Origin: an uncultured bacterium | GTDB taxonomy: Bacteria > Patescibacteriota > Minisyncoccia > Phycocordibacterales > Phycocordibacteraceae | Length of the DNA: 54,125 nucleotides | Assembly (NCBI GenBank): GCA_947085505.1 | Contig: CAMTWI010000003.1 | Location: forward strand, 73,319 to 127,443 | Direction: 5' to 3' | The notes under the pieces: generated by a model | What the model saw: the letters and a program-made list of their open reading frames with translations, nothing else | Told to the model about the DNA's origin: nothing | Database searches by the model: none | Shown: positions 25,708 through 33,577 of the stretch, piece after piece | Layout: the number at the start of each line of letters is the position of its first letter | Position numbering within the stretch: position 1 is the first letter of the stretch | Translations under genes and position numbers: made by a program

Positions 25708-27381
25708 ATGGAAGAGACGCTGAAAACTGCCATACGCGAAGCCCTGGTATCGATGGGTGCCCAGGACGTTACCTTTGCTGTTGAGTGGCCAGCAGATCTC
25801 GCGCATGGGGACTTTGCAACGAATGCTGCACTTGCTGCAAGTAAGACTCTCGGACGCTCTCCGCGCGATATCGCTGACGAGCTCGTGTTGCTCCTTAAGA
25901 AGTCTCTCGGAGATGAGGTCGCGTCGATTGAAGCGGCAGGTCCTGGGTTCGTGAATATTAAGCTTGCGCGGAGCGCGGTAACGAAGTCACTCTCAAACGC
26001 CCTCGATCCTGAATGGGGTAAGGGCTCAGCTCGCGCAGGGGAGAGAGTGGCTTTCGAATATTCATGCCCGAACCCGTTTAAAGAGATGCATATCGGGCAT
26101 CTTATGAACACAGTTATTGGGGAGGCAGCATCAAGGCTTGTGGAGAATCAAGGGGCACGTGTAATACGTGATAGCTATGGCGGTGATATAGGTCCACATG
26201 TCGCTCGAGGCATGTGGGGGCTTTCCGACATGGGAATCACGGAGCCTACGTCAGCCTCAGAGATCGGTAAGGCGTACGAACATGGGTCACGCGCATATGA
26301 GGAGAGCGAAAAAGCGAAGACTGAGATCGATTCGCTCAATGTCGCACTTTATGAAGCTCTCGCGAAAGAACCACAGCAGTGGAACGAAGAGGAACGTACT
26401 CGGATGGAATTGTGGCGTAAGGGGCGTGAGGTAGCACTAAGTGCATTTAGAGAGATATATGCGCTGCTCGGTACGCATTTCGACTACTACCTATTTGAGA
26501 GCGAAACCTCGCCGATTGGTATGAGTATCGTGAAGGAGTACCTTGTGAAGGGTGTGTTCGAAGAGAGTGAAGGTGCGGTGATATATGCTGGAGAGAAAAA
26601 GGGTTTGCATACGCTTGTATTCATCACTTCCCGGGGCACACCGACCTACGAGACGAAGGATGTCGGCCTCGCGTTCCTGAAAGAGGAGAAAATCCCGAAC
26701 GACAGTTCCTACATCGTCACCGGCATAGAGCAGGTAGGGCACTTCAAGGTATTCCTTGCTGCTCTCGAGGAGATAGCGCCCAAGGTCGCGCTCAAGACCC
26801 ATCACATCCCTCATGGCCTGCTACAGCTTACGACGGGTAAGATGGCTTCGCGGAAAGGAAATGTCGTCACTGCCGCAGGTATGATTGAGACCGTTCTTGC
26901 TATGGCTCTAGAGAAGAACGAGGATCCGTTAGTCGCAGAGCCGGTCGCAGTAGGTGCACTTAAGTACATGATTTTACGCAGTGCTCCTGGCTCCAGTGTT
27001 ATCTTTGATCCGGAAAAGGCGCTCGCGCTCGATGGCGACTCAGGTCCGTATCTCCAGTACGCGCTCGTGCGCGCAAAGTCCGTCATCTCTCAGTCAGAAG
27101 TAGCGGCAGGAAAGGAAGATGCTCCTGCTGAAGTTTATGACATTGAACGGCTTCTCATCCGGTTCCCTGAGGTGGCTCGCTGTGCCGAAGCCATGATCGC
27201 CCCGCATGCCATAGCCCAGTACCTAACCACACTCGCTTCAGCATGGAATTCGTTCTATGCAGCAGAGCGTATCAGAGGTGGCGAACACGAAGCGTACAAG
27301 CTCCTCATTGCGCAAGCGTTCGTTACGACAATGGAGAACGGTCTCGCACTTCTGGGTATTCCGGTTCCAGAACGGATGTAA
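25708..27381 (+). CDS. argS: Arginine--tRNA ligase
   Basis: HGDFATNAA, GPGFVNI, EYSCPNPFKEMHIGH, KMASRKG and GPYLQYA. Confidence 0.97.
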   Translation: MEETLKTAIREALVSMGAQDVTFAVEWPADLAHGDFATNAALAASKTLGRSPRDIADELVLLLKKSLGDEVASIEAAGPGFVNIKLARSAVTKSLSNALDPEWGKGSARAGERVAFEYSCPNPFKEMHIGHLMNTVIGEAASRLVENQGARVIRDSYGGDIGPHVARGMWGLSDMGITEPTSASEIGKAYEHGSRAYEESEKAKTEIDSLNVALYEALAKEPQQWNEEERTRMELWRKGREVALSAFREIYALLGTHFDYYLFESETSPIGMSIVKEYLVKGVFEESEGAVIYAGEKKGLHTLVFITSRGTPTYETKDVGLAFLKEEKIPNDSSYIVTGIEQVGHFKVFLAALEEIAPKVALKTHHIPHGLLQLTTGKMASRKGNVVTAAGMIETVLAMALEKNEDPLVAEPVAVGALKYMILRSAPGSSVIFDPEKALALDGDSGPYLQYALVRAKSVISQSEVAAGKEDAPAEVYDIERLLIRFPEVARCAEAMIAPHAIAQYLTTLASAWNSFYAAERIRGGEHEAYKLLIAQAFVTTMENGLALLGIPVPERM

Positions 27382-27445
27382 ACGGCACCTCGTTGCATAT
27401 TTACGTATAGAGCGGTAGGGTAGCTCTTGTCCTCATTTTGGGAGG

Positions 27446-27652
27446 ATGTCGTTGTTTCGGGAGAAGACTTTGACTGATACGGCTTCGAGTTCGGGGAACT
27501 GTTCGGGCGGGACGAAGTTTCGTCGCAATGAGGACCCGCGCCCTTCGCGTGAAATGCGCAATGCGCAGATCAATCATGCGGCAGTGGGCGCTGGTCCGCC
27601 CAAAAGCGGTATCGACCGCTTCAGGGACAAATACAAAGGGTTCGGCTGGTAA
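27446..27652 (+). CDS. Hypothetical 68-aa basic protein
   Basis: GGAGG upstream of the start and a hairpin/U-tract downstream; no recognisable motif. Confidence 0.4.
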   Translation: MSLFREKTLTDTASSSGNCSGGTKFRRNEDPRPSREMRNAQINHAAVGAGPPKSGIDRFRDKYKGFGW

Positions 27653-27733
27653 AAGCTGAACTCAAGATGGGACGGCCCGCGCTTGCGTGGGTCGTTTTCC
27701 TTTTAGTACGCAAAACGCTAGGATGAGGAGACT

Positions 27734-30700
27734 ATGGCTGATGCAGAGAAATCAGAAGTCTCAAAACGCGAGGAAGCGGTCCTTGCGCTCTGGAACGAGA
27801 AGGGAATTTTTGAGAAGTCCCTCAAGAAGCCATCTCCTAAAGGGGGGTTCGTTTTCTTCGAGGGCCCTCCAACAGCAAATGGACGCCCGGGCGTGCACCA
27901 CATGGAATCACGCTCATTTAAGGATGCAATTCCTCGGTACAAAACCATGCGCGGATACAAGGTTGAGCGACGTGCCGGATGGGATACGCACGGGCTTCCG
28001 GTAGAGCTCGAGGTTGAGAAAGAACTTCAGTTCCGTGGGAAGAAGGATATCGAAGAGTACGGTGTTGCAGCATTCAACAAGAAGTGTCGCGAGAGCGTCA
28101 TGAAGTACATCGAGGAGTGGTCGCGCTTCACGGATCGTATTGCGTATTGGGTCGATCAGGAGAAGGCCTACTTTACTTTCGACGCTCCGTATATGGAATC
28201 GGTTTGGAGCATTATGAAGAAGGTGTCGGATGACGGGCGCCTCTTTAAGGATTATCGCGTTGTACCGTGGTGCGCACGGTGCGGGACCGCACTTTCTTCG
28301 CATGAACTTGCCCAGGGCTATGCAGACGTGAAGGATCTTTCTATAACAGCAAAGTTTAAAGTCGTGGGGGAACCGAATACGTATTTCCTTGCGTGGACAA
28401 CAACGCCATGGACACTTCCTGGAAACGTCGGGCTCGCAGTAGGGAAGGACATTATGTATGCGTACGTGACGCGTGAAGGAGAGACCTTCATCGTCGCGTC
28501 TGCGCTTGTTGAGAAGTTGTTTGGAGCTGCCGAGGTTATGAAGGAAGTACCTGGATCAGATCTCATCGGACTCGCATACGAACCGCTCTATCCATTCTCT
28601 CGCACACTCGCTCCAGAAAGCGAGAAAGCAAAGTTCGAGGACGCGGCGTATCGCGTGCACGAGGCATCATTTGTTACAACCGAAGACGGAACCGGTGTAG
28701 TACATACGGCAGTGATGTATGGACAGGAGGATTTCGATCTCGGACAGAAGGTAGGCTTGCCGAAAGTACACCTTGTTGCTCCTGACGGACGCTTCATCTC
28801 AGGCACGGGCTTTCTTGAGGGACGATTTGTGAAGGAAGAGGACGAGAACGGAAAGCCGACACTCGCGGTCGACATCGTTGATGATCTTACGACGCGCGGA
28901 CTCTTTTTCTCTAAGGAGAACTATCTCCACAGCTATCCTTTCTGCTGGCGCTGCAAGACGCCGCTCATTTATTACGCCCGCGACTCTTGGTATATCCGCA
29001 TGCAGGATCTTCGCGAGAAGCTCATGGCATCGAACGCGAGCGTTAATTGGGAGCCATCTCATATTCGGGAGGGTCGCATGGGTGAGTGGCTCTCAAACGT
29101 GCGTGACTGGTCTATCTCACGTGAGCGCTACTGGGGAACACCGCTACCAGTGTGGCAGAGTAAGGACGGCACGGAACGCCTAACAATCGGGTCCGTTGAA
29201 GAACTTAAGGCGCGGACCAAGAAAAGTGGTAACCGCTACTTTGTCATGCGACATGGTGAATCGACCAACAACCTGCTGGAAATCAATAGTACCGACCTCG
29301 GTGGTGCAGAAGCAGGGCACCATCTTACTGACCTTGGACGAGAAACAGTCAAGGCAAGTGTAGCTCGTCACGCGGACGCGCCGTTCGATCTCGTGTTCGT
29401 GTCTCCGTTCACCCGTACCCAGGAGACAGCGGAGATTATCGCAAAGACGTTGAATCTAGCACCTGAACAAGTGGTTACTGACTCTCGTCTACGGGAGATT
29501 TCCGTCGGCGAGTTTGAAGGGAAGACGTACGCAGAGTACCGCAGCTTCTTTGCATCTCCCGCAGAGCGCTTCACAAAGACACCAGAAGGCGGAGAGAACT
29601 GTAACAACGTGCGTAGGCGAGTAGGCGAGCTTCTGTATGAGGTTGAAGGTCTCTACGCCGGCAAGAAGATTCTTTTCATAACGCATGGTGATGTTCTCTG
29701 GATGCTCGGCCTTATCAAAGAAGGACATACTCGTTCGCATACGACGTCCGTTGCCGACCCCCTAACTGGGAAGATAGAGGAGTTTGCCTTCGTGCCGCTT
29801 CCTCATAACGATGACTACGAACTCGACCTGCACCGTCCATATATAGACGATGTCGTGCTTATCGCTGACTCAGGGTCGGAACTTACACGCATCCCTGAAG
29901 TTATGGATGTGTGGTTCGACTCAGGCGCGATGCCGTTTGCGCAGGATCACTATCCGTTCGAGAATAAGGAGAAGCTTGATACCACTGGTTACCCTGCGGA
30001 CTATATATCCGAAGCCATCGACCAGACCCGCGGTTGGTTCTATACCTTGCTTGCGGTAGGTACGCTGCTTGGACGTGGCGCTCCTTATAAGAACGTTATC
30101 TGCCTTGGGCACCTTCTTGACGGGAATGGACAGAAGATGTCGAAGTCAAAGGGCAACATCGTTAATCCATGGGAGGCTATAGAGCGCTATGGCGTCGACA
30201 CGCTCCGGTTTTGGATGTTCAGTGTGAATCAGCCAGGAGATTCAAAGAGCTTTGATGAGAAGACCTTGAAGGAGTCTGCACGTGTTATCTCCTGGCTTGA
30301 TAATAGTGCAAAGTTCTACGGACTCTTTAAGGATAGTGTTGGAGAAGGTGAGAAGACAACCATCGACCGTTGGATGGATGCGCGTGTCTCACGTGCTGTA
30401 CGTGAGGTAACGGACGCCATGGACGCCTACAAACTCTATGACGCGTCGCGCGCAACTGCACGTCTCATCGAAGACCTGTCGCAATGGTATGTGCGTCGCA
30501 TTCGCGATCGTGCGCGTGACGGAGACACAGCTGCACTGAGTACGTTGCGTACGTCTCTTAAAACCTGCGCACTCCTGATAGCGCCACTCTCTCCGTTTAT
30601 AGCGGAAGAGGTGTATCAGCTTGTACGTGAAGACAATGATGCGGAGAGCGTGCATCTTGCACAGTGGCCTCAAGCCGAGACCTCCTTCTTTGGCCGGATG

Positions 30701-31114
30701 TTTGGTGGTAAGGGAGATGATGTACTTCTCGATGACATGACACGACTACGCTCGCTTGCCTCTGAAGCGTTGCAGCTTCGCCAGAAAGCCGGTGTTGTCG
30801 TGCGTCAGCCACTCCAGAGCCTTTCAATACCAGGAACGCTCTCATCTGGCCTCGCATCGATCCTTGCAGAAGAAGTGAACGTAAAGGAAATTTTGGAAGG
30901 AGCAGAGGCACTCGCGCTCGACACTGCACTTACACCCGAGCTCGTTGCAGAGGGCGATGAGCGAACATTCGCACGTGCGGTTGCTGAAGCGAGAAAGACA
31001 GAGGGCCTCTCGCCAAAAGACACGGTCTCAATTGATAAGAGGGAAGACGGCACGTATGTCGCTGAGCTCTCTACTGGACCAGTACGGTTCTCTCTCGTCC
31101 GTAATGCGACATAA
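27734..31114 (+). CDS. ileS: Isoleucine--tRNA ligase (IleRS2 type) with inserted histidine-phosphatase domain
   Basis: [59 protein letters not shown] and KMSKS; an RHG-domain insert at ~29228-29790. Confidence 0.96.
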
Positions 31115-31655
31115 ATACGTCACGACCGCGCTCGTCCTCGCCCGAACGTCGCTCAAGGAATCGGCAGCACTCGTTACACTTCTCACGGAAGAGTTTGGGT
31201 TGGTGCGTGCTCGCGCAGAAGGCTTACGCAAGCCTGGTGCAAAGCTTGCGCACGCACTTCAGACACTTGATCGCTGCGAGGTGACCCTTGTTCGTGGGAA
31301 AGAGGGATGGCGATTGTCAGGAGCAATCCTCGAGGACAGTTGGTTCAAAAGACTGACGCGTGCTGAGCGACTACGTGCAGGGCGTGTTGCGGGGCTCCTT
31401 CTTCGCATGGTGCATGGCGAAGCAAATGATCCGTCCCTTTTTGTTTTATATACAGAATTTCTTGATGCCTTGCCGGGGCTTTCCGAGGAGGCGCAGGATG
31501 CGGCAGAAATTATGACAGCACTCCGTATCCTTTCCGTACTCGGTCTTGATATTGGTGTTCTGCCGCAAGTAGGCTCATACGAACCGCTCCTGCCGGACCA
31601 GAGGCGCATGCTTGTTATGCGGGTTAATAGGGGAATCGCTGCCTCGGGCCTGTAA
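31104..31655 (+). CDS. recO: DNA repair protein RecO (short form)
   Basis: ALVL...[32 protein letters not shown]-fold signature. Confidence 0.8.
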
Positions 31656-31678
31656 CGGACTTGCTATACTTGGGAGCA

Positions 31679-33577
31679 ATGCCTCCAAACACGCCTGACG
31701 ATACGAGCACACTCGAACGGTTGCGACAGAAACTCTATGCGTCACAAGCGCCAGAGAGTTTCCCTGCACCGACACTCTCGCAGACGCCTGCTCCTTCTGT
31801 TTCAGCAGAAGAAGGGTGGGCACCTCCGGCACCCGAAGTGCTTACAAAGAAGTCCCGCATCTCCTGGGCGGCGATATTCCTTGGTATTGCGGCCATATTC
31901 TTCATACTTGCGGTTACGAGTGCTGCATACTTCCTTATGTTTGGTGGACGCTCGGTATCAACAGACCGCATCACGATTCTTGCAGACGGTCCGACCTCGA
32001 TTAGTAGCGGAGACGAGGTTACAATCCTCATCTCTATCGAAAACAGAAATCCCGTTACGGTACTCAGTACCACGCTATCGGCAGAATTCCCAGATACGAC
32101 ACGATCTCCTGATGATGTGGAGCAACCGTTTACGCATTACGAAGACACCGCAGGAGACATACTCTCCGGACAGAGTAGTGCTCGCTCTGTACGTGCGCGC
32201 ATGTATGGAAGTGAAGGACAACGAGTTACGGTGCCAATACGATTTGAATACCGTATTGAAGGATCGAACGCGGTTTTCGTGAAAGAGGCAGAGTATGAGG
32301 TACAGATCACCTCGTCCCCACTATCAGTTCGTGCAGAAGCGGTATCTGAAGCGGCGGTAGGGCAGCCGCTCACCTTCGCGGTGACGGTCCGTTCGAACGC
32401 TAAGGAGCCAATCGAGAATGTCGCGGTCCTTGCACAGTACCCATTTGGGTTTACGGCACGTCGTGGCGAGGGCCCGGTATTTCCCGTTGGAACCCTTGCG
32501 CCAGGTGAGGAGCGTACAATTACCGTTACTGGAACCCTTACGGGCGAGAACAATGACGAGCGCGTATTCCGCTTTACGGGTGGTATCCGGCGCGGGGAGG
32601 AGACGAGCGTACTTTCGGTGTCGTATTCAACGGCACTCGCGTCAGTAACGCTTGCAAAGCCATTTCTTTCGACTGGTCTTTCGTTTAACCGAGATACGAG
32701 CAGTACGCCAGTTATAGAAGCCGGTGCGCCAGTTCAGGGCATCATTTCGTGGGTGAATACACTCGCAACACCGATTCTTGATGGTCAGGTTTCGGTAACG
32801 CTTTCGGGTGCCGCCCTCGACCCTTCGTCGGTCAGTGCATACGGAGGGTTCTATCGTTCGTCTGACACCACAATCATCTACTCTCGCGAGACCGACAGTG
32901 GCCTCGGAAATCTTGCACCAGGCGCAACGGGAAGCGGTACATTCAACTTCAGGACAAAGTCTGCGGCAACACTGGCAAGCATGAAGAATCCGACTATTAT
33001 CGCAACTGTCTCGGTCGCGGGTCGTCGAGTAGGGGAGAGTAATGTGCCAGAGAGCATAGCGTCATCGGTTACGCGCACGATAAAAGTCGGGACCGATCTC
33101 GCACTTACCGCAAAAGCGCTTTACAGCAGCGGTGCATTCAAGAACACGGGCCCATGGCCGCCAATCGCAGATCAGGAGACAACCTATACAATTGATCTCT
33201 CGCTCACGAATACCGTTAACTCTGTTGCCGATACAGTCGTTACTGGCGTACTGCCATCCTATGTTCGTTACGTTGGTGCGACGGGCGCTGCGGATGGATC
33301 GGTGTCCTACAATACTGCAACCCGTACGGTTACGTGGCGAGCAGGTGAGGTCGCGAACGGTGTTGGCTTTAGCACAAGTGCCCGATCCGCTGCGTTTCAG
33401 GTTGCGCTGTTGCCAAGCGCGTCGCAGCGGGGTACAAGTCCTATACTCATGTCCTCAATTAAAGTCACGGGCACGGATCGCTTTACCCAGAAAGCCCTTA
33501 CCTTGACTCGTCCTGAGATCACGACCCAAGTCACCCTTGACCCTAGCTATGTGCAAGGGAAGGGAGAAGTCCGATAA
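31679..33577 (+). CDS. Large membrane-anchored extracellular protein with repeated beta-sandwich (DUF11-like) modules
   Basis: TM WAAIFLGIAAIFFILAV; repeats such as GQPLTFAVTVRSN and QETTYTIDLSLTN...LPSYVRY. Confidence 0.65.
   Translation: MPPNTPDDTSTLERLRQKLYASQAPESFPAPTLSQTPAPSVSAEEGWAPPAPEVLTKKSRISWAAIFLGIAAIFFILAVTSAAYFLMFGGRSVSTDRITILADGPTSISSGDEVTILISIENRNPVTVLSTTLSAEFPDTTRSPDDVEQPFTHYEDTAGDILSGQSSARSVRARMYGSEGQRVTVPIRFEYRIEGSNAVFVKEAEYEVQITSSPLSVRAEAVSEAAVGQPLTFAVTVRSNAKEPIENVAVLAQYPFGFTARRGEGPVFPVGTLAPGEERTITVTGTLTGENNDERVFRFTGGIRRGEETSVLSVSYSTALASVTLAKPFLSTGLSFNRDTSSTPVIEAGAPVQGIISWVNTLATPILDGQVSVTLSGAALDPSSVSAYGGFYRSSDTTIIYSRETDSGLGNLAPGATGSGTFNFRTKSAATLASMKNPTIIATVSVAGRRVGESNVPESIASSVTRTIKVGTDLALTAKALYSSGAFKNTGPWPPIADQETTYTIDLSLTNTVNSVADTVVTGVLPSYVRYVGATGAADGSVSYNTATRTVTWRAGEVANGVGFSTSARSAAFQVALLPSASQRGTSPILMSSIKVTGTDRFTQKALTLTRPEITTQVTLDPSYVQGKGEVR

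Follow-up and report, generated by a model that had tools for sequence, protein, structure and literature searches.

A conserved histidine phosphatase domain nested in the isoleucyl-tRNA synthetase of Parcubacteria-type Patescibacteria

Introduction

What is a phosphatase doing inside a tRNA synthetase? The question is raised by a 54,125 nt stretch of DNA (the window, meaning the whole stretch analysed) from an uncultured bacterium of the Phycocordibacteraceae (Patescibacteriota; NCBI assembly GCA_947085505.1, contig CAMTWI010000003.1, positions 73,319 to 127,443 of the forward strand). Its isoleucyl-tRNA synthetase (IleRS) gene, ileS, contains a histidine phosphatase domain in frame. An earlier reading of these letters (the sequence-only reading) had described an intact domain of the phosphoglycerate-mutase-like family within IleRS, and suggested that it may act on tRNA ends, phosphorylated amino acids or nucleotides. 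An extra active enzyme nested in the catalytic core of a synthetase lies outside the textbook picture of these well-studied enzymes, and minimal genomes keep little without need.

The nested enzyme is real, conserved and under selection, and its motifs and predicted fold suggest that it is probably active. The nesting is conserved across hundreds of species and is found at various sites and in synthetases of both classes, and the domain can be traced to a translationally coupled operon partner; this pattern suggests a previously undescribed accessory activity. Should that activity serve aminoacylation, it would amount to a new form of quality control or protection; otherwise, the locus offers a clean natural example of an operon neighbour that became a nested domain.

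The architecture itself is already known, being visible in database annotation and in one sentence published in 2013. That sentence, given without analysis, is the sole printed mention found in full-text searches, and reports an SR1 (Absconditabacteria) IleRS with a Nudix domain and two phosphoglycerate-mutase-type domains (Kantor et al., 2013; PMC3812714). The SR1 enzyme resembles the window protein in being an IleRS of the candidate phyla radiation (CPR) interrupted by a phosphoglycerate-mutase-type domain, but the window protein contains only one such domain, in one place. Two recent papers on IleRS evolution, one of which surveys 97,678 sequences, mention neither phosphatases nor CPR enzymes. 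As the sequence-only reading had stated, no function has been assigned to a synthetase-nested phosphatase in the literature searched.

A histidine phosphatase at the tip of a synthetase hairpin

The ileS gene with its nested phosphatase is a single open reading frame (ORF) of 1126 amino acids (27734..31114, on the forward strand, as are all genes, domains and residues of the window located below). When it is aligned with the type-2 IleRS (IleRS2) structure 8c8w, residues 10-493 correspond to residues 11-476 and residues 691-1051 to residues 480-845. Between these blocks lies an inserted module of 197 aa (aa 494-690; 29213..29803), where 8c8w has a turn of approximately three residues between two CxxC knuckles. 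Canonical IleRS therefore lacks the domain, as had been proposed; the extent given earlier, 29228-29790, lies wholly within the insert, which is slightly wider. From its position in the sequence, the host hairpin appears to be connective peptide 3 (CP3), a name used in PMC11685878. The four flanking cysteine positions read QSKDG and ADSG in the window protein, with no cysteine remaining, in contrast to the CxxC pairs that flank the turn in solved IleRS2 structures.

The His_Phos_1 domain splits the Pfam tRNA-synt_1 match in two, the phosphatase fold accounts for the entire insert in the domain model, and base composition shows no discontinuity across either junction. Each arm of the host hairpin borders a terminal strand of the domain, the first or the last. 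Judged by secondary structure alone, the connection thus appears to be a rigid stalk and not a flexible linker. An intein, self-splicing or mobile insert was considered and rejected; the full protein has no Hint, intein or homing-endonuclease Pfam match (E ≤ 0.01).

The core of the insert (aa 503-658; 29240..29707) matches Pfam His_Phos_1 (PF00300) with an E-value of 2e-29 and 103.1 bits against a cut-off of 21.7, which bears out the family placement first made from the motifs. All the motifs quoted earlier as hallmarks of the family are present in the translation (aa 501-510, 556-566 and 584-597, PEGGE at 617-621 and ITHG at 649-652). Conservation was assessed in an alignment of 71 insert-bearing IleRS proteins (46% mean column identity), in which six residues of the domain are invariant. 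These are R506 and H507 of the RHG motif (29249..29254), H507 being the predicted phospho-accepting nucleophile; N513, the conserved asparagine after RHG (29270..29272); R561, the second phosphate-binding arginine (29414..29416); E588 within RLREI, the predicted proton donor (29495..29497); and H651 of THG, the second catalytic histidine (29684..29686). The earlier description of an intact domain that keeps its catalytic His/Arg/Glu/His set is thereby upheld, and the fold is confidently predicted. The AlphaFold model of the domain alone has a pLDDT of 92.4 and a pTM of 0.89, while the full-length model has a pLDDT of 91.1 and a pTM of 0.83, with the blocks of the insert at 88-97.

A fold search with the full-length model returned synthetases only, and the domain-only model was used to find phosphatase matches. 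Its nearest folds are PhoE (1h2e; TM 0.79, rmsd 2.2 Å), Rv2419c, PspA and CobC, and the nearest solved folds are compact small-molecule phosphatases throughout. PhoE (YhfR) of Geobacillus stearothermophilus (1ebb, 1h2e) is a broad-specificity enzyme; Rv2419c is the mycobacterial glucosyl-3-phosphoglycerate phosphatase (GpgP); and PspA is that of Hydrogenobacter. The insert shares with these proteins the compact fold of approximately 200 aa, and its RHG, RLREI and THG motifs align with those of PhoE. It differs from them in being nested rather than free-standing, in sharing only 22-26% identity with them, and in having its own subfamily marks, for example N-x-Y before RHG. By profile, motifs and predicted fold, the insert is a branch-1 histidine phosphatase. 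The domain is also acidic, with a median net charge of -7 over 187 aa and a net positive charge in only three of the 71 copies, and nothing points to an extended RNA-binding surface.

More specific identities were rejected, the insert passing no NCBIfam equivalog cut-off. It scores 65 bits against 225 for dPGM_arch and 19.9 against 81.7 for pgm_1, which argues against a dPGM identity, and falls likewise below the cut-offs for CobC (69.6 against 162.9), PspA (40.9 against 350) and SixA (27.5 against 74.5). Neither SixA, among the 50 fold matches listed for the domain model, nor any RNA phosphatase of this superfamily, among the fold matches listed, was found. The bifunctional RNase H/acid phosphatase of the Rv2228c type (NF005567) is among the best NCBIfam matches, with 68 bits, far below its cut-off of 326. 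It likewise joins a nucleic-acid enzyme to a CobC-like histidine phosphatase for a purpose that is unclear, but as an end-to-end fusion rather than by nesting.

Comparison with L008, the closest relative compared at the DNA level, gave a dN/dS of 0.081 for the insert (84% amino acid identity) and 0.036 for the synthetase body; dS is near saturation, which makes these ratios rough. The low value for the insert indicates that it is under purifying selection.

The host synthetase

The protein scores 836 bits against the NCBIfam ileS equivalog TIGR00392 (cut-off 621), and its best PDB matches are the IleRS2 structures of Priestia megaterium (8c8w, 8c8u and 8c8v) and Thermus thermophilus (1ile). 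The sequence match to IleRS2 has an E-value of 1e-223, and the full-length model matches IleRS2 structures with a TM of 0.72-0.79 (8c8v, 0.72/0.79). The likeness extends over the whole body, the type-2 C-terminal domains, the KMSKS loop and the editing motifs. On the 8c8w alignment, the first part of the body (aa 1-493; 27734..29212) comprises the first Rossmann half, CP1 with the editing domain, CP2 and the first arm of the CP3 hairpin. The second part (aa 691-1126; 29804..31111) comprises the second CP3 arm and the second Rossmann half with KMSKS, followed by the SC-fold, anticodon-binding and type-2 C-terminal domains (Pfam matches Anticodon_1 and DUF5915).

Across the 71 homologs, K801 and K804 of the KMSKS loop (K801-S805; 30134..30148) are invariant and S803 and S805 nearly so. 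The editing motifs TTTPWTLP and GTG.VH.A vary little or not at all, and H324/D333 are conserved. The class I signature reads G53-V-H-H56 (27890..27901), the GXHH form that is swapped from HXGH; 49 of the 71 homologs have G/A-x-H-H and the other 22 have H-x-G-H/S. Because GXHH occurs naturally in IleRS2, where it confers mupirocin hyper-resistance with only a mild loss of activity (PMC10485003), the GVHH of the window protein represents a known functional variant and not damage. It is natural here and engineered in 8c8w. The protein is thus a type-2 IleRS in which every synthetic and editing signature is present. A genome-wide tblastn search found no second IleRS in the assembly, which is 76% complete, and the nested-phosphatase IleRS is therefore very probably the working synthetase of its genome.

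Two annotated IleRS variants were also rejected as identities. The acquired mupirocin-resistance enzymes MupA and MupB are matched with 681 and 675 bits against a cut-off of 1900, a likeness that reflects type-2 IleRS only. The N-acetyltransferase domain-containing IleRS (NF040702), which resembles the window IleRS in carrying an extra enzyme domain but has a different enzyme inserted, is matched with 296 against 1999 bits, and the window protein has no acetyltransferase match.

Distribution and other hosts

PF00133 and PF00300 are combined in all 120 best homologs of aa 470-720 (44-98% identity), so the arrangement is conserved in relatives; a 98%-identical protein comes from a separate record, and hence an independent assembly. 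A pattern scan of species-representative genomes found at least 587 loci that encode relatives of the insert, under record titles that include Kaiser-, Nomura-, Adler-, Yonath- and Zambryskibacteria, Paceibacterota and Minisyncoccia. Of 401 genomes sampled evenly across the phylum, 116 encode a close homolog of the domain, and approximately 58 carry it in a frame of at least 900 aa, only some of these frames being confirmed as IleRS. Such long frames occur in 20 of the 24 sampled genomes from the class to which the window belongs. The nested phosphatase is a lineage-wide trait of Parcubacteria-type Patescibacteria.

Mapping of multi-domain relatives onto the window protein revealed four insertion points in IleRS. 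Site A (aa 493/691) is that of the window, site B (approximately aa 717) lies within the second knuckle, site C is at approximately aa 745-754, and site D (approximately aa 870-875) is found just before the anticodon-binding domain. Some IleRS proteins contain two or three phosphatase copies.

The domain is also found in other synthetases, as the sequence-only reading had said of CPR synthetases. A valyl-tRNA synthetase (ValRS) from genome G147 (L090:1875-5708, reverse strand; NF004349, 867 bits against a cut-off of 704) carries two tandem phosphatase modules, 376 aa in length, between WWGHRIPVWY and DTLDTWFSS, the equivalent of site A. A class II alanyl-tRNA synthetase (AlaRS) from genome G100 of family f55 (L091:4133-6469; NF002436, 875 bits against a cut-off of 529) carries one, a 187 aa insert (aa 221-408) just before motif 3 (DTGMGLER), and three further genomes of that family have frames of about this size. 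In P0245 (387 aa), the phosphatase is fused to a TsaC/Sua5-type domain (Pfam Sua5_yciO_yrdC, the threonylcarbamoyl-AMP synthase family). The best 150 matches to the domain comprise 96 IleRS, one ValRS, 48 short proteins and five other long proteins, so that IleRS or ValRS account for 97 of 102 long hosts. The five others are three phosphatase tandems, the TsaC fusion and a single domain with short unmatched flanks.

Several CPR IleRS proteins have further peculiarities. P0138 (1066 aa) keeps both CxxC knuckles while carrying the phosphatase at site A. Two further domains are present in P0138: GNAT, following 'HFPFEN', and an IS200-like Y1 transposase (Y1_Tnp, E=7e-12) within the CP1/editing region. 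The IleRS of G389 (L005:3-2453, reverse strand) has approximately 180 extra residues in the CP1 region, near window aa 250. The ileS of L088 (2682-5609, reverse strand) is split into two ORFs with a break near window aa 404-415; the record contains X residues, and the break may be a sequence error.

From operon neighbour to nested domain: a probable history

In the phosphatase tree, the window insert lies within a clade of 18 site-A inserts (SH-aLRT 95), which adjoins clades of free-standing phosphatases of approximately 190 aa. The genomic positions of eight free-standing proteins in the tree were looked up. At the P0198 and P0258 loci, the order is argS, phosphatase, an insert-less ileS, a small ORF, recO and a large protein, with gaps of 1-4 nt or gene overlaps. 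P0143 and P0150 lie downstream of argS with ileS convergent, P0168 is located 11 nt upstream of ileS, and P0189 has argS directly upstream. P0156 is found beside recO on a short contig, and the contig of P0188 is too short to show neighbours. By locus, argS-phosphatase-ileS in one direction, with gaps of 1-4 nt or overlaps, is found in L096 and L098-L100, the same order with ileS reversed in L088 and L093, and phosphatase-ileS in L089. The only insert-less family in the window's class has a phosphatase gene between argS and ileS, with 1-3 ORFs interposed.

In the window, argS (25708..27381; Pfam Arg_tRNA_synt_N, tRNA-synt_1d and DALR_1) lies directly upstream of ileS, in synteny with L096, L098-L100, L088, L093 and L003-L005. 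A recO-like ORF (30945..31655; RecO_N, E=2.4e-12) occupies the same position as in L096 and L098; since the ORF begins before ileS has ended, its true start probably lies further downstream. The window order argS-ileS(+phosphatase)-recO-DUF11 protein (25708-33577) is kept in the distant relatives L096 and L098, where it is preceded by smpB, infC, rpmI and rplT. The large protein after recO in L096 has only a faint DUF11/CLIPPER-type Pfam match. No relic of a free-standing phosphatase was found in the 353 nt spacer between argS and ileS.

Tree and gene order together indicate that the nested domain arose from a free-standing gene located between argS and ileS in the closest insert-less lineages, or has a common origin with it. 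The simplest history would be that of an operon partner turned nested domain.

Possible functions of the nested phosphatase

The reading that we favour, with a probability of roughly 0.5, is that the insert is an active, PhoE-like small-molecule phosphatase that has been selected to travel with adenylate-forming tRNA enzymes and has a working link to them. IleRS, ValRS, AlaRS and TsaC all form an acyl-adenylate and release pyrophosphate (PPi) and AMP. The IleRS part would charge tRNA(Ile) as usual, while the nested domain would hydrolyse a phosphomonoester through a phospho-His507 intermediate, with R506, R561 and H651 holding the phosphate and E588 serving as acid/base. Because the fold is compact and PhoE/PspA/GpgP-like, the surface acidic and SixA-like features absent, the substrate would be a small phosphorylated metabolite or nucleotide rather than tRNA or protein. 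The phosphatase may handle something that adenylate-forming active sites produce or require, or that targets them. Recurrence of the domain at four IleRS sites, in tandems and in ValRS, AlaRS and TsaC argues that its linkage to these enzymes would have been selected.

A more specific proposal, that the phosphatase forms a third catalytic site performing a step of the aminoacylation cycle, such as freeing a blocked tRNA CCA end or breaking down a phosphorylated by-product or inhibitor at the synthetic site, is speculative. Equally speculative is its extension to IleRS, ValRS, class II AlaRS and TsaC alike, whether the phosphatase is nested or translationally coupled.

Several observations weigh against the favoured reading. 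Approximately 70% of the Patescibacteria sampled lack a close homolog of the domain, so that the phylum can do without its activity. Ranking of the matches by similarity to an IleRS-borne copy biases the list of hosts; exclusivity to adenylate-forming tRNA enzymes is suggestive and not proven. When all His_Phos paralogs are pooled, ileS is found within 10 kb of only five of the 45 free-standing copies, so that ileS linkage holds for the close subfamily and not for all paralogs, and operon adjacency alone could account for IleRS as the usual host.

Moreover, both concrete roles that were tested came out negative. A substitute for pyrophosphatase (PPase) is not supported, as the genome has its own family I PPase (G000:C3:31682-32137), and PPase is found in approximately 21 of 58 carriers (counted by hand) against 159 of 401 genomes overall. 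A glycolytic mutase, the role suggested by annotation, is not supported as a general explanation either, since six of 11 complete carriers lack enolase. Phosphoglycerate kinase (PGK) was found in the genome, and enolase and cofactor-independent phosphoglycerate mutase (iPGM) were not detected there. Enolase occurs in 24 of 80 near-complete genomes of the class. In-frame TAA codons flagged in enolase matches are not real; five of the flagged loci and one unflagged reference locus read uninterrupted.

The alternative that survives best, and that we regard as possible although less probable than the favoured reading, is that the domain is a passenger. A housekeeping phosphatase from the strongly expressed argS-ileS operon would have entered a surface loop of ileS that tolerates insertions as the genome was streamlined, and would keep its catalytic residues only for a task of its own, unconnected with aminoacylation. 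Its ancestral position beside ileS and argS would provide an easy route and explain the bias towards IleRS. Surface-loop insertion points also take other domains, such as GNAT (ileS_w_GNAT, P0138) and Nudix (PMC3812714), and both the closeness of the domain to generic small-molecule phosphatases and its absence from most Patescibacteria would fit. An upstream gene, however, would be expected to fuse N-terminally, not in a hairpin 493 residues into the protein. Repeated captures would be needed to explain four sites, tandems and hosts that are encoded elsewhere (ValRS, class II AlaRS and TsaC), and all the long hosts checked are adenylate-forming tRNA enzymes or phosphatase tandems. The two housekeeping roles discussed above failed, and a second, distant His_Phos_1 gene is available in the genome for other duties.

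That second gene (G000:C4:149831-150436; L001:1402-2124) forms a distant long branch in the phosphatase tree. It overlaps the end of a sensor-histidine-kinase-like ORF, with a GNAT-like ORF on the opposite strand and a TyrRS-like ORF approximately 0.8 kb downstream.

Healing of tRNA ends, close to one suggestion of the sequence-only reading, appears unlikely. The phosphatase would clear a blocking 2′/3′-phosphate or pyrophosphate remnant from A76 before charging, such blocks stemming from ribonuclease damage or from toxins that modify the CCA end. Three of the hosts (IleRS, ValRS and AlaRS) bind the acceptor end, and the rigid β-stalk link and high pTM suggest that the domain may be held in a fixed pose. 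The Nudix domain and two phosphatases of the SR1 IleRS would moreover suit a two-step removal of pyrophosphate. The acidity of the domain and the small-molecule type of its nearest folds, among which no RNA phosphatase is listed, nevertheless lean away from a tRNA-end substrate, as does the TsaC host, which to our knowledge is not a tRNA-binding enzyme.

A non-catalytic or regulatory module is more doubtful still. The insert would be either a brace that replaces the zinc knuckle or a protein phosphatase or sensor that regulates IleRS. Zinc-knuckle cysteine ligands have been lost in 67 of the 71 carriers, whose hairpin may need another stabiliser, but bracing does not require six invariant catalytic residues, and some carriers (P0138, G112) keep both knuckles together with the insert. 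For a regulatory protein phosphatase, the sub-threshold SixA score and the absence of SixA from the listed fold matches are unfavourable. Finally, nothing was found in favour of a chimeric assembly of an IleRS gene and a phosphatase gene, which is excluded in practice by the recurrence of the architecture, with conserved junction residues, in hundreds of independent assemblies that share 44-98% identity, and which the continuous reading frame and uniform composition also contradict.

Other features of the locus and genome

The genome encodes a tRNA-Ile(UAU) (G000:C1:25294-25370) alongside tRNA-Ile(GAU). A UAU isoacceptor is unusual in bacteria, where AUA is mostly read by a lysidine-modified CAU tRNA.

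An Rfam search upstream of ileS gave no T-box or other known leader RNA with an E-value below 0.1. A strong terminator-like hairpin (27669-27698; 13 pairs followed by a T-run) lies approximately 35 nt before the ileS start, and its counterpart in L008 has the same structure with another sequence. From the hairpin to the ATG (27699-27736), approximately 36 nt are identical in L008, or approximately 40 nt if two mismatches are allowed. The region 27669-27736 probably represents an upstream terminator followed by a conserved ileS 5′ region.

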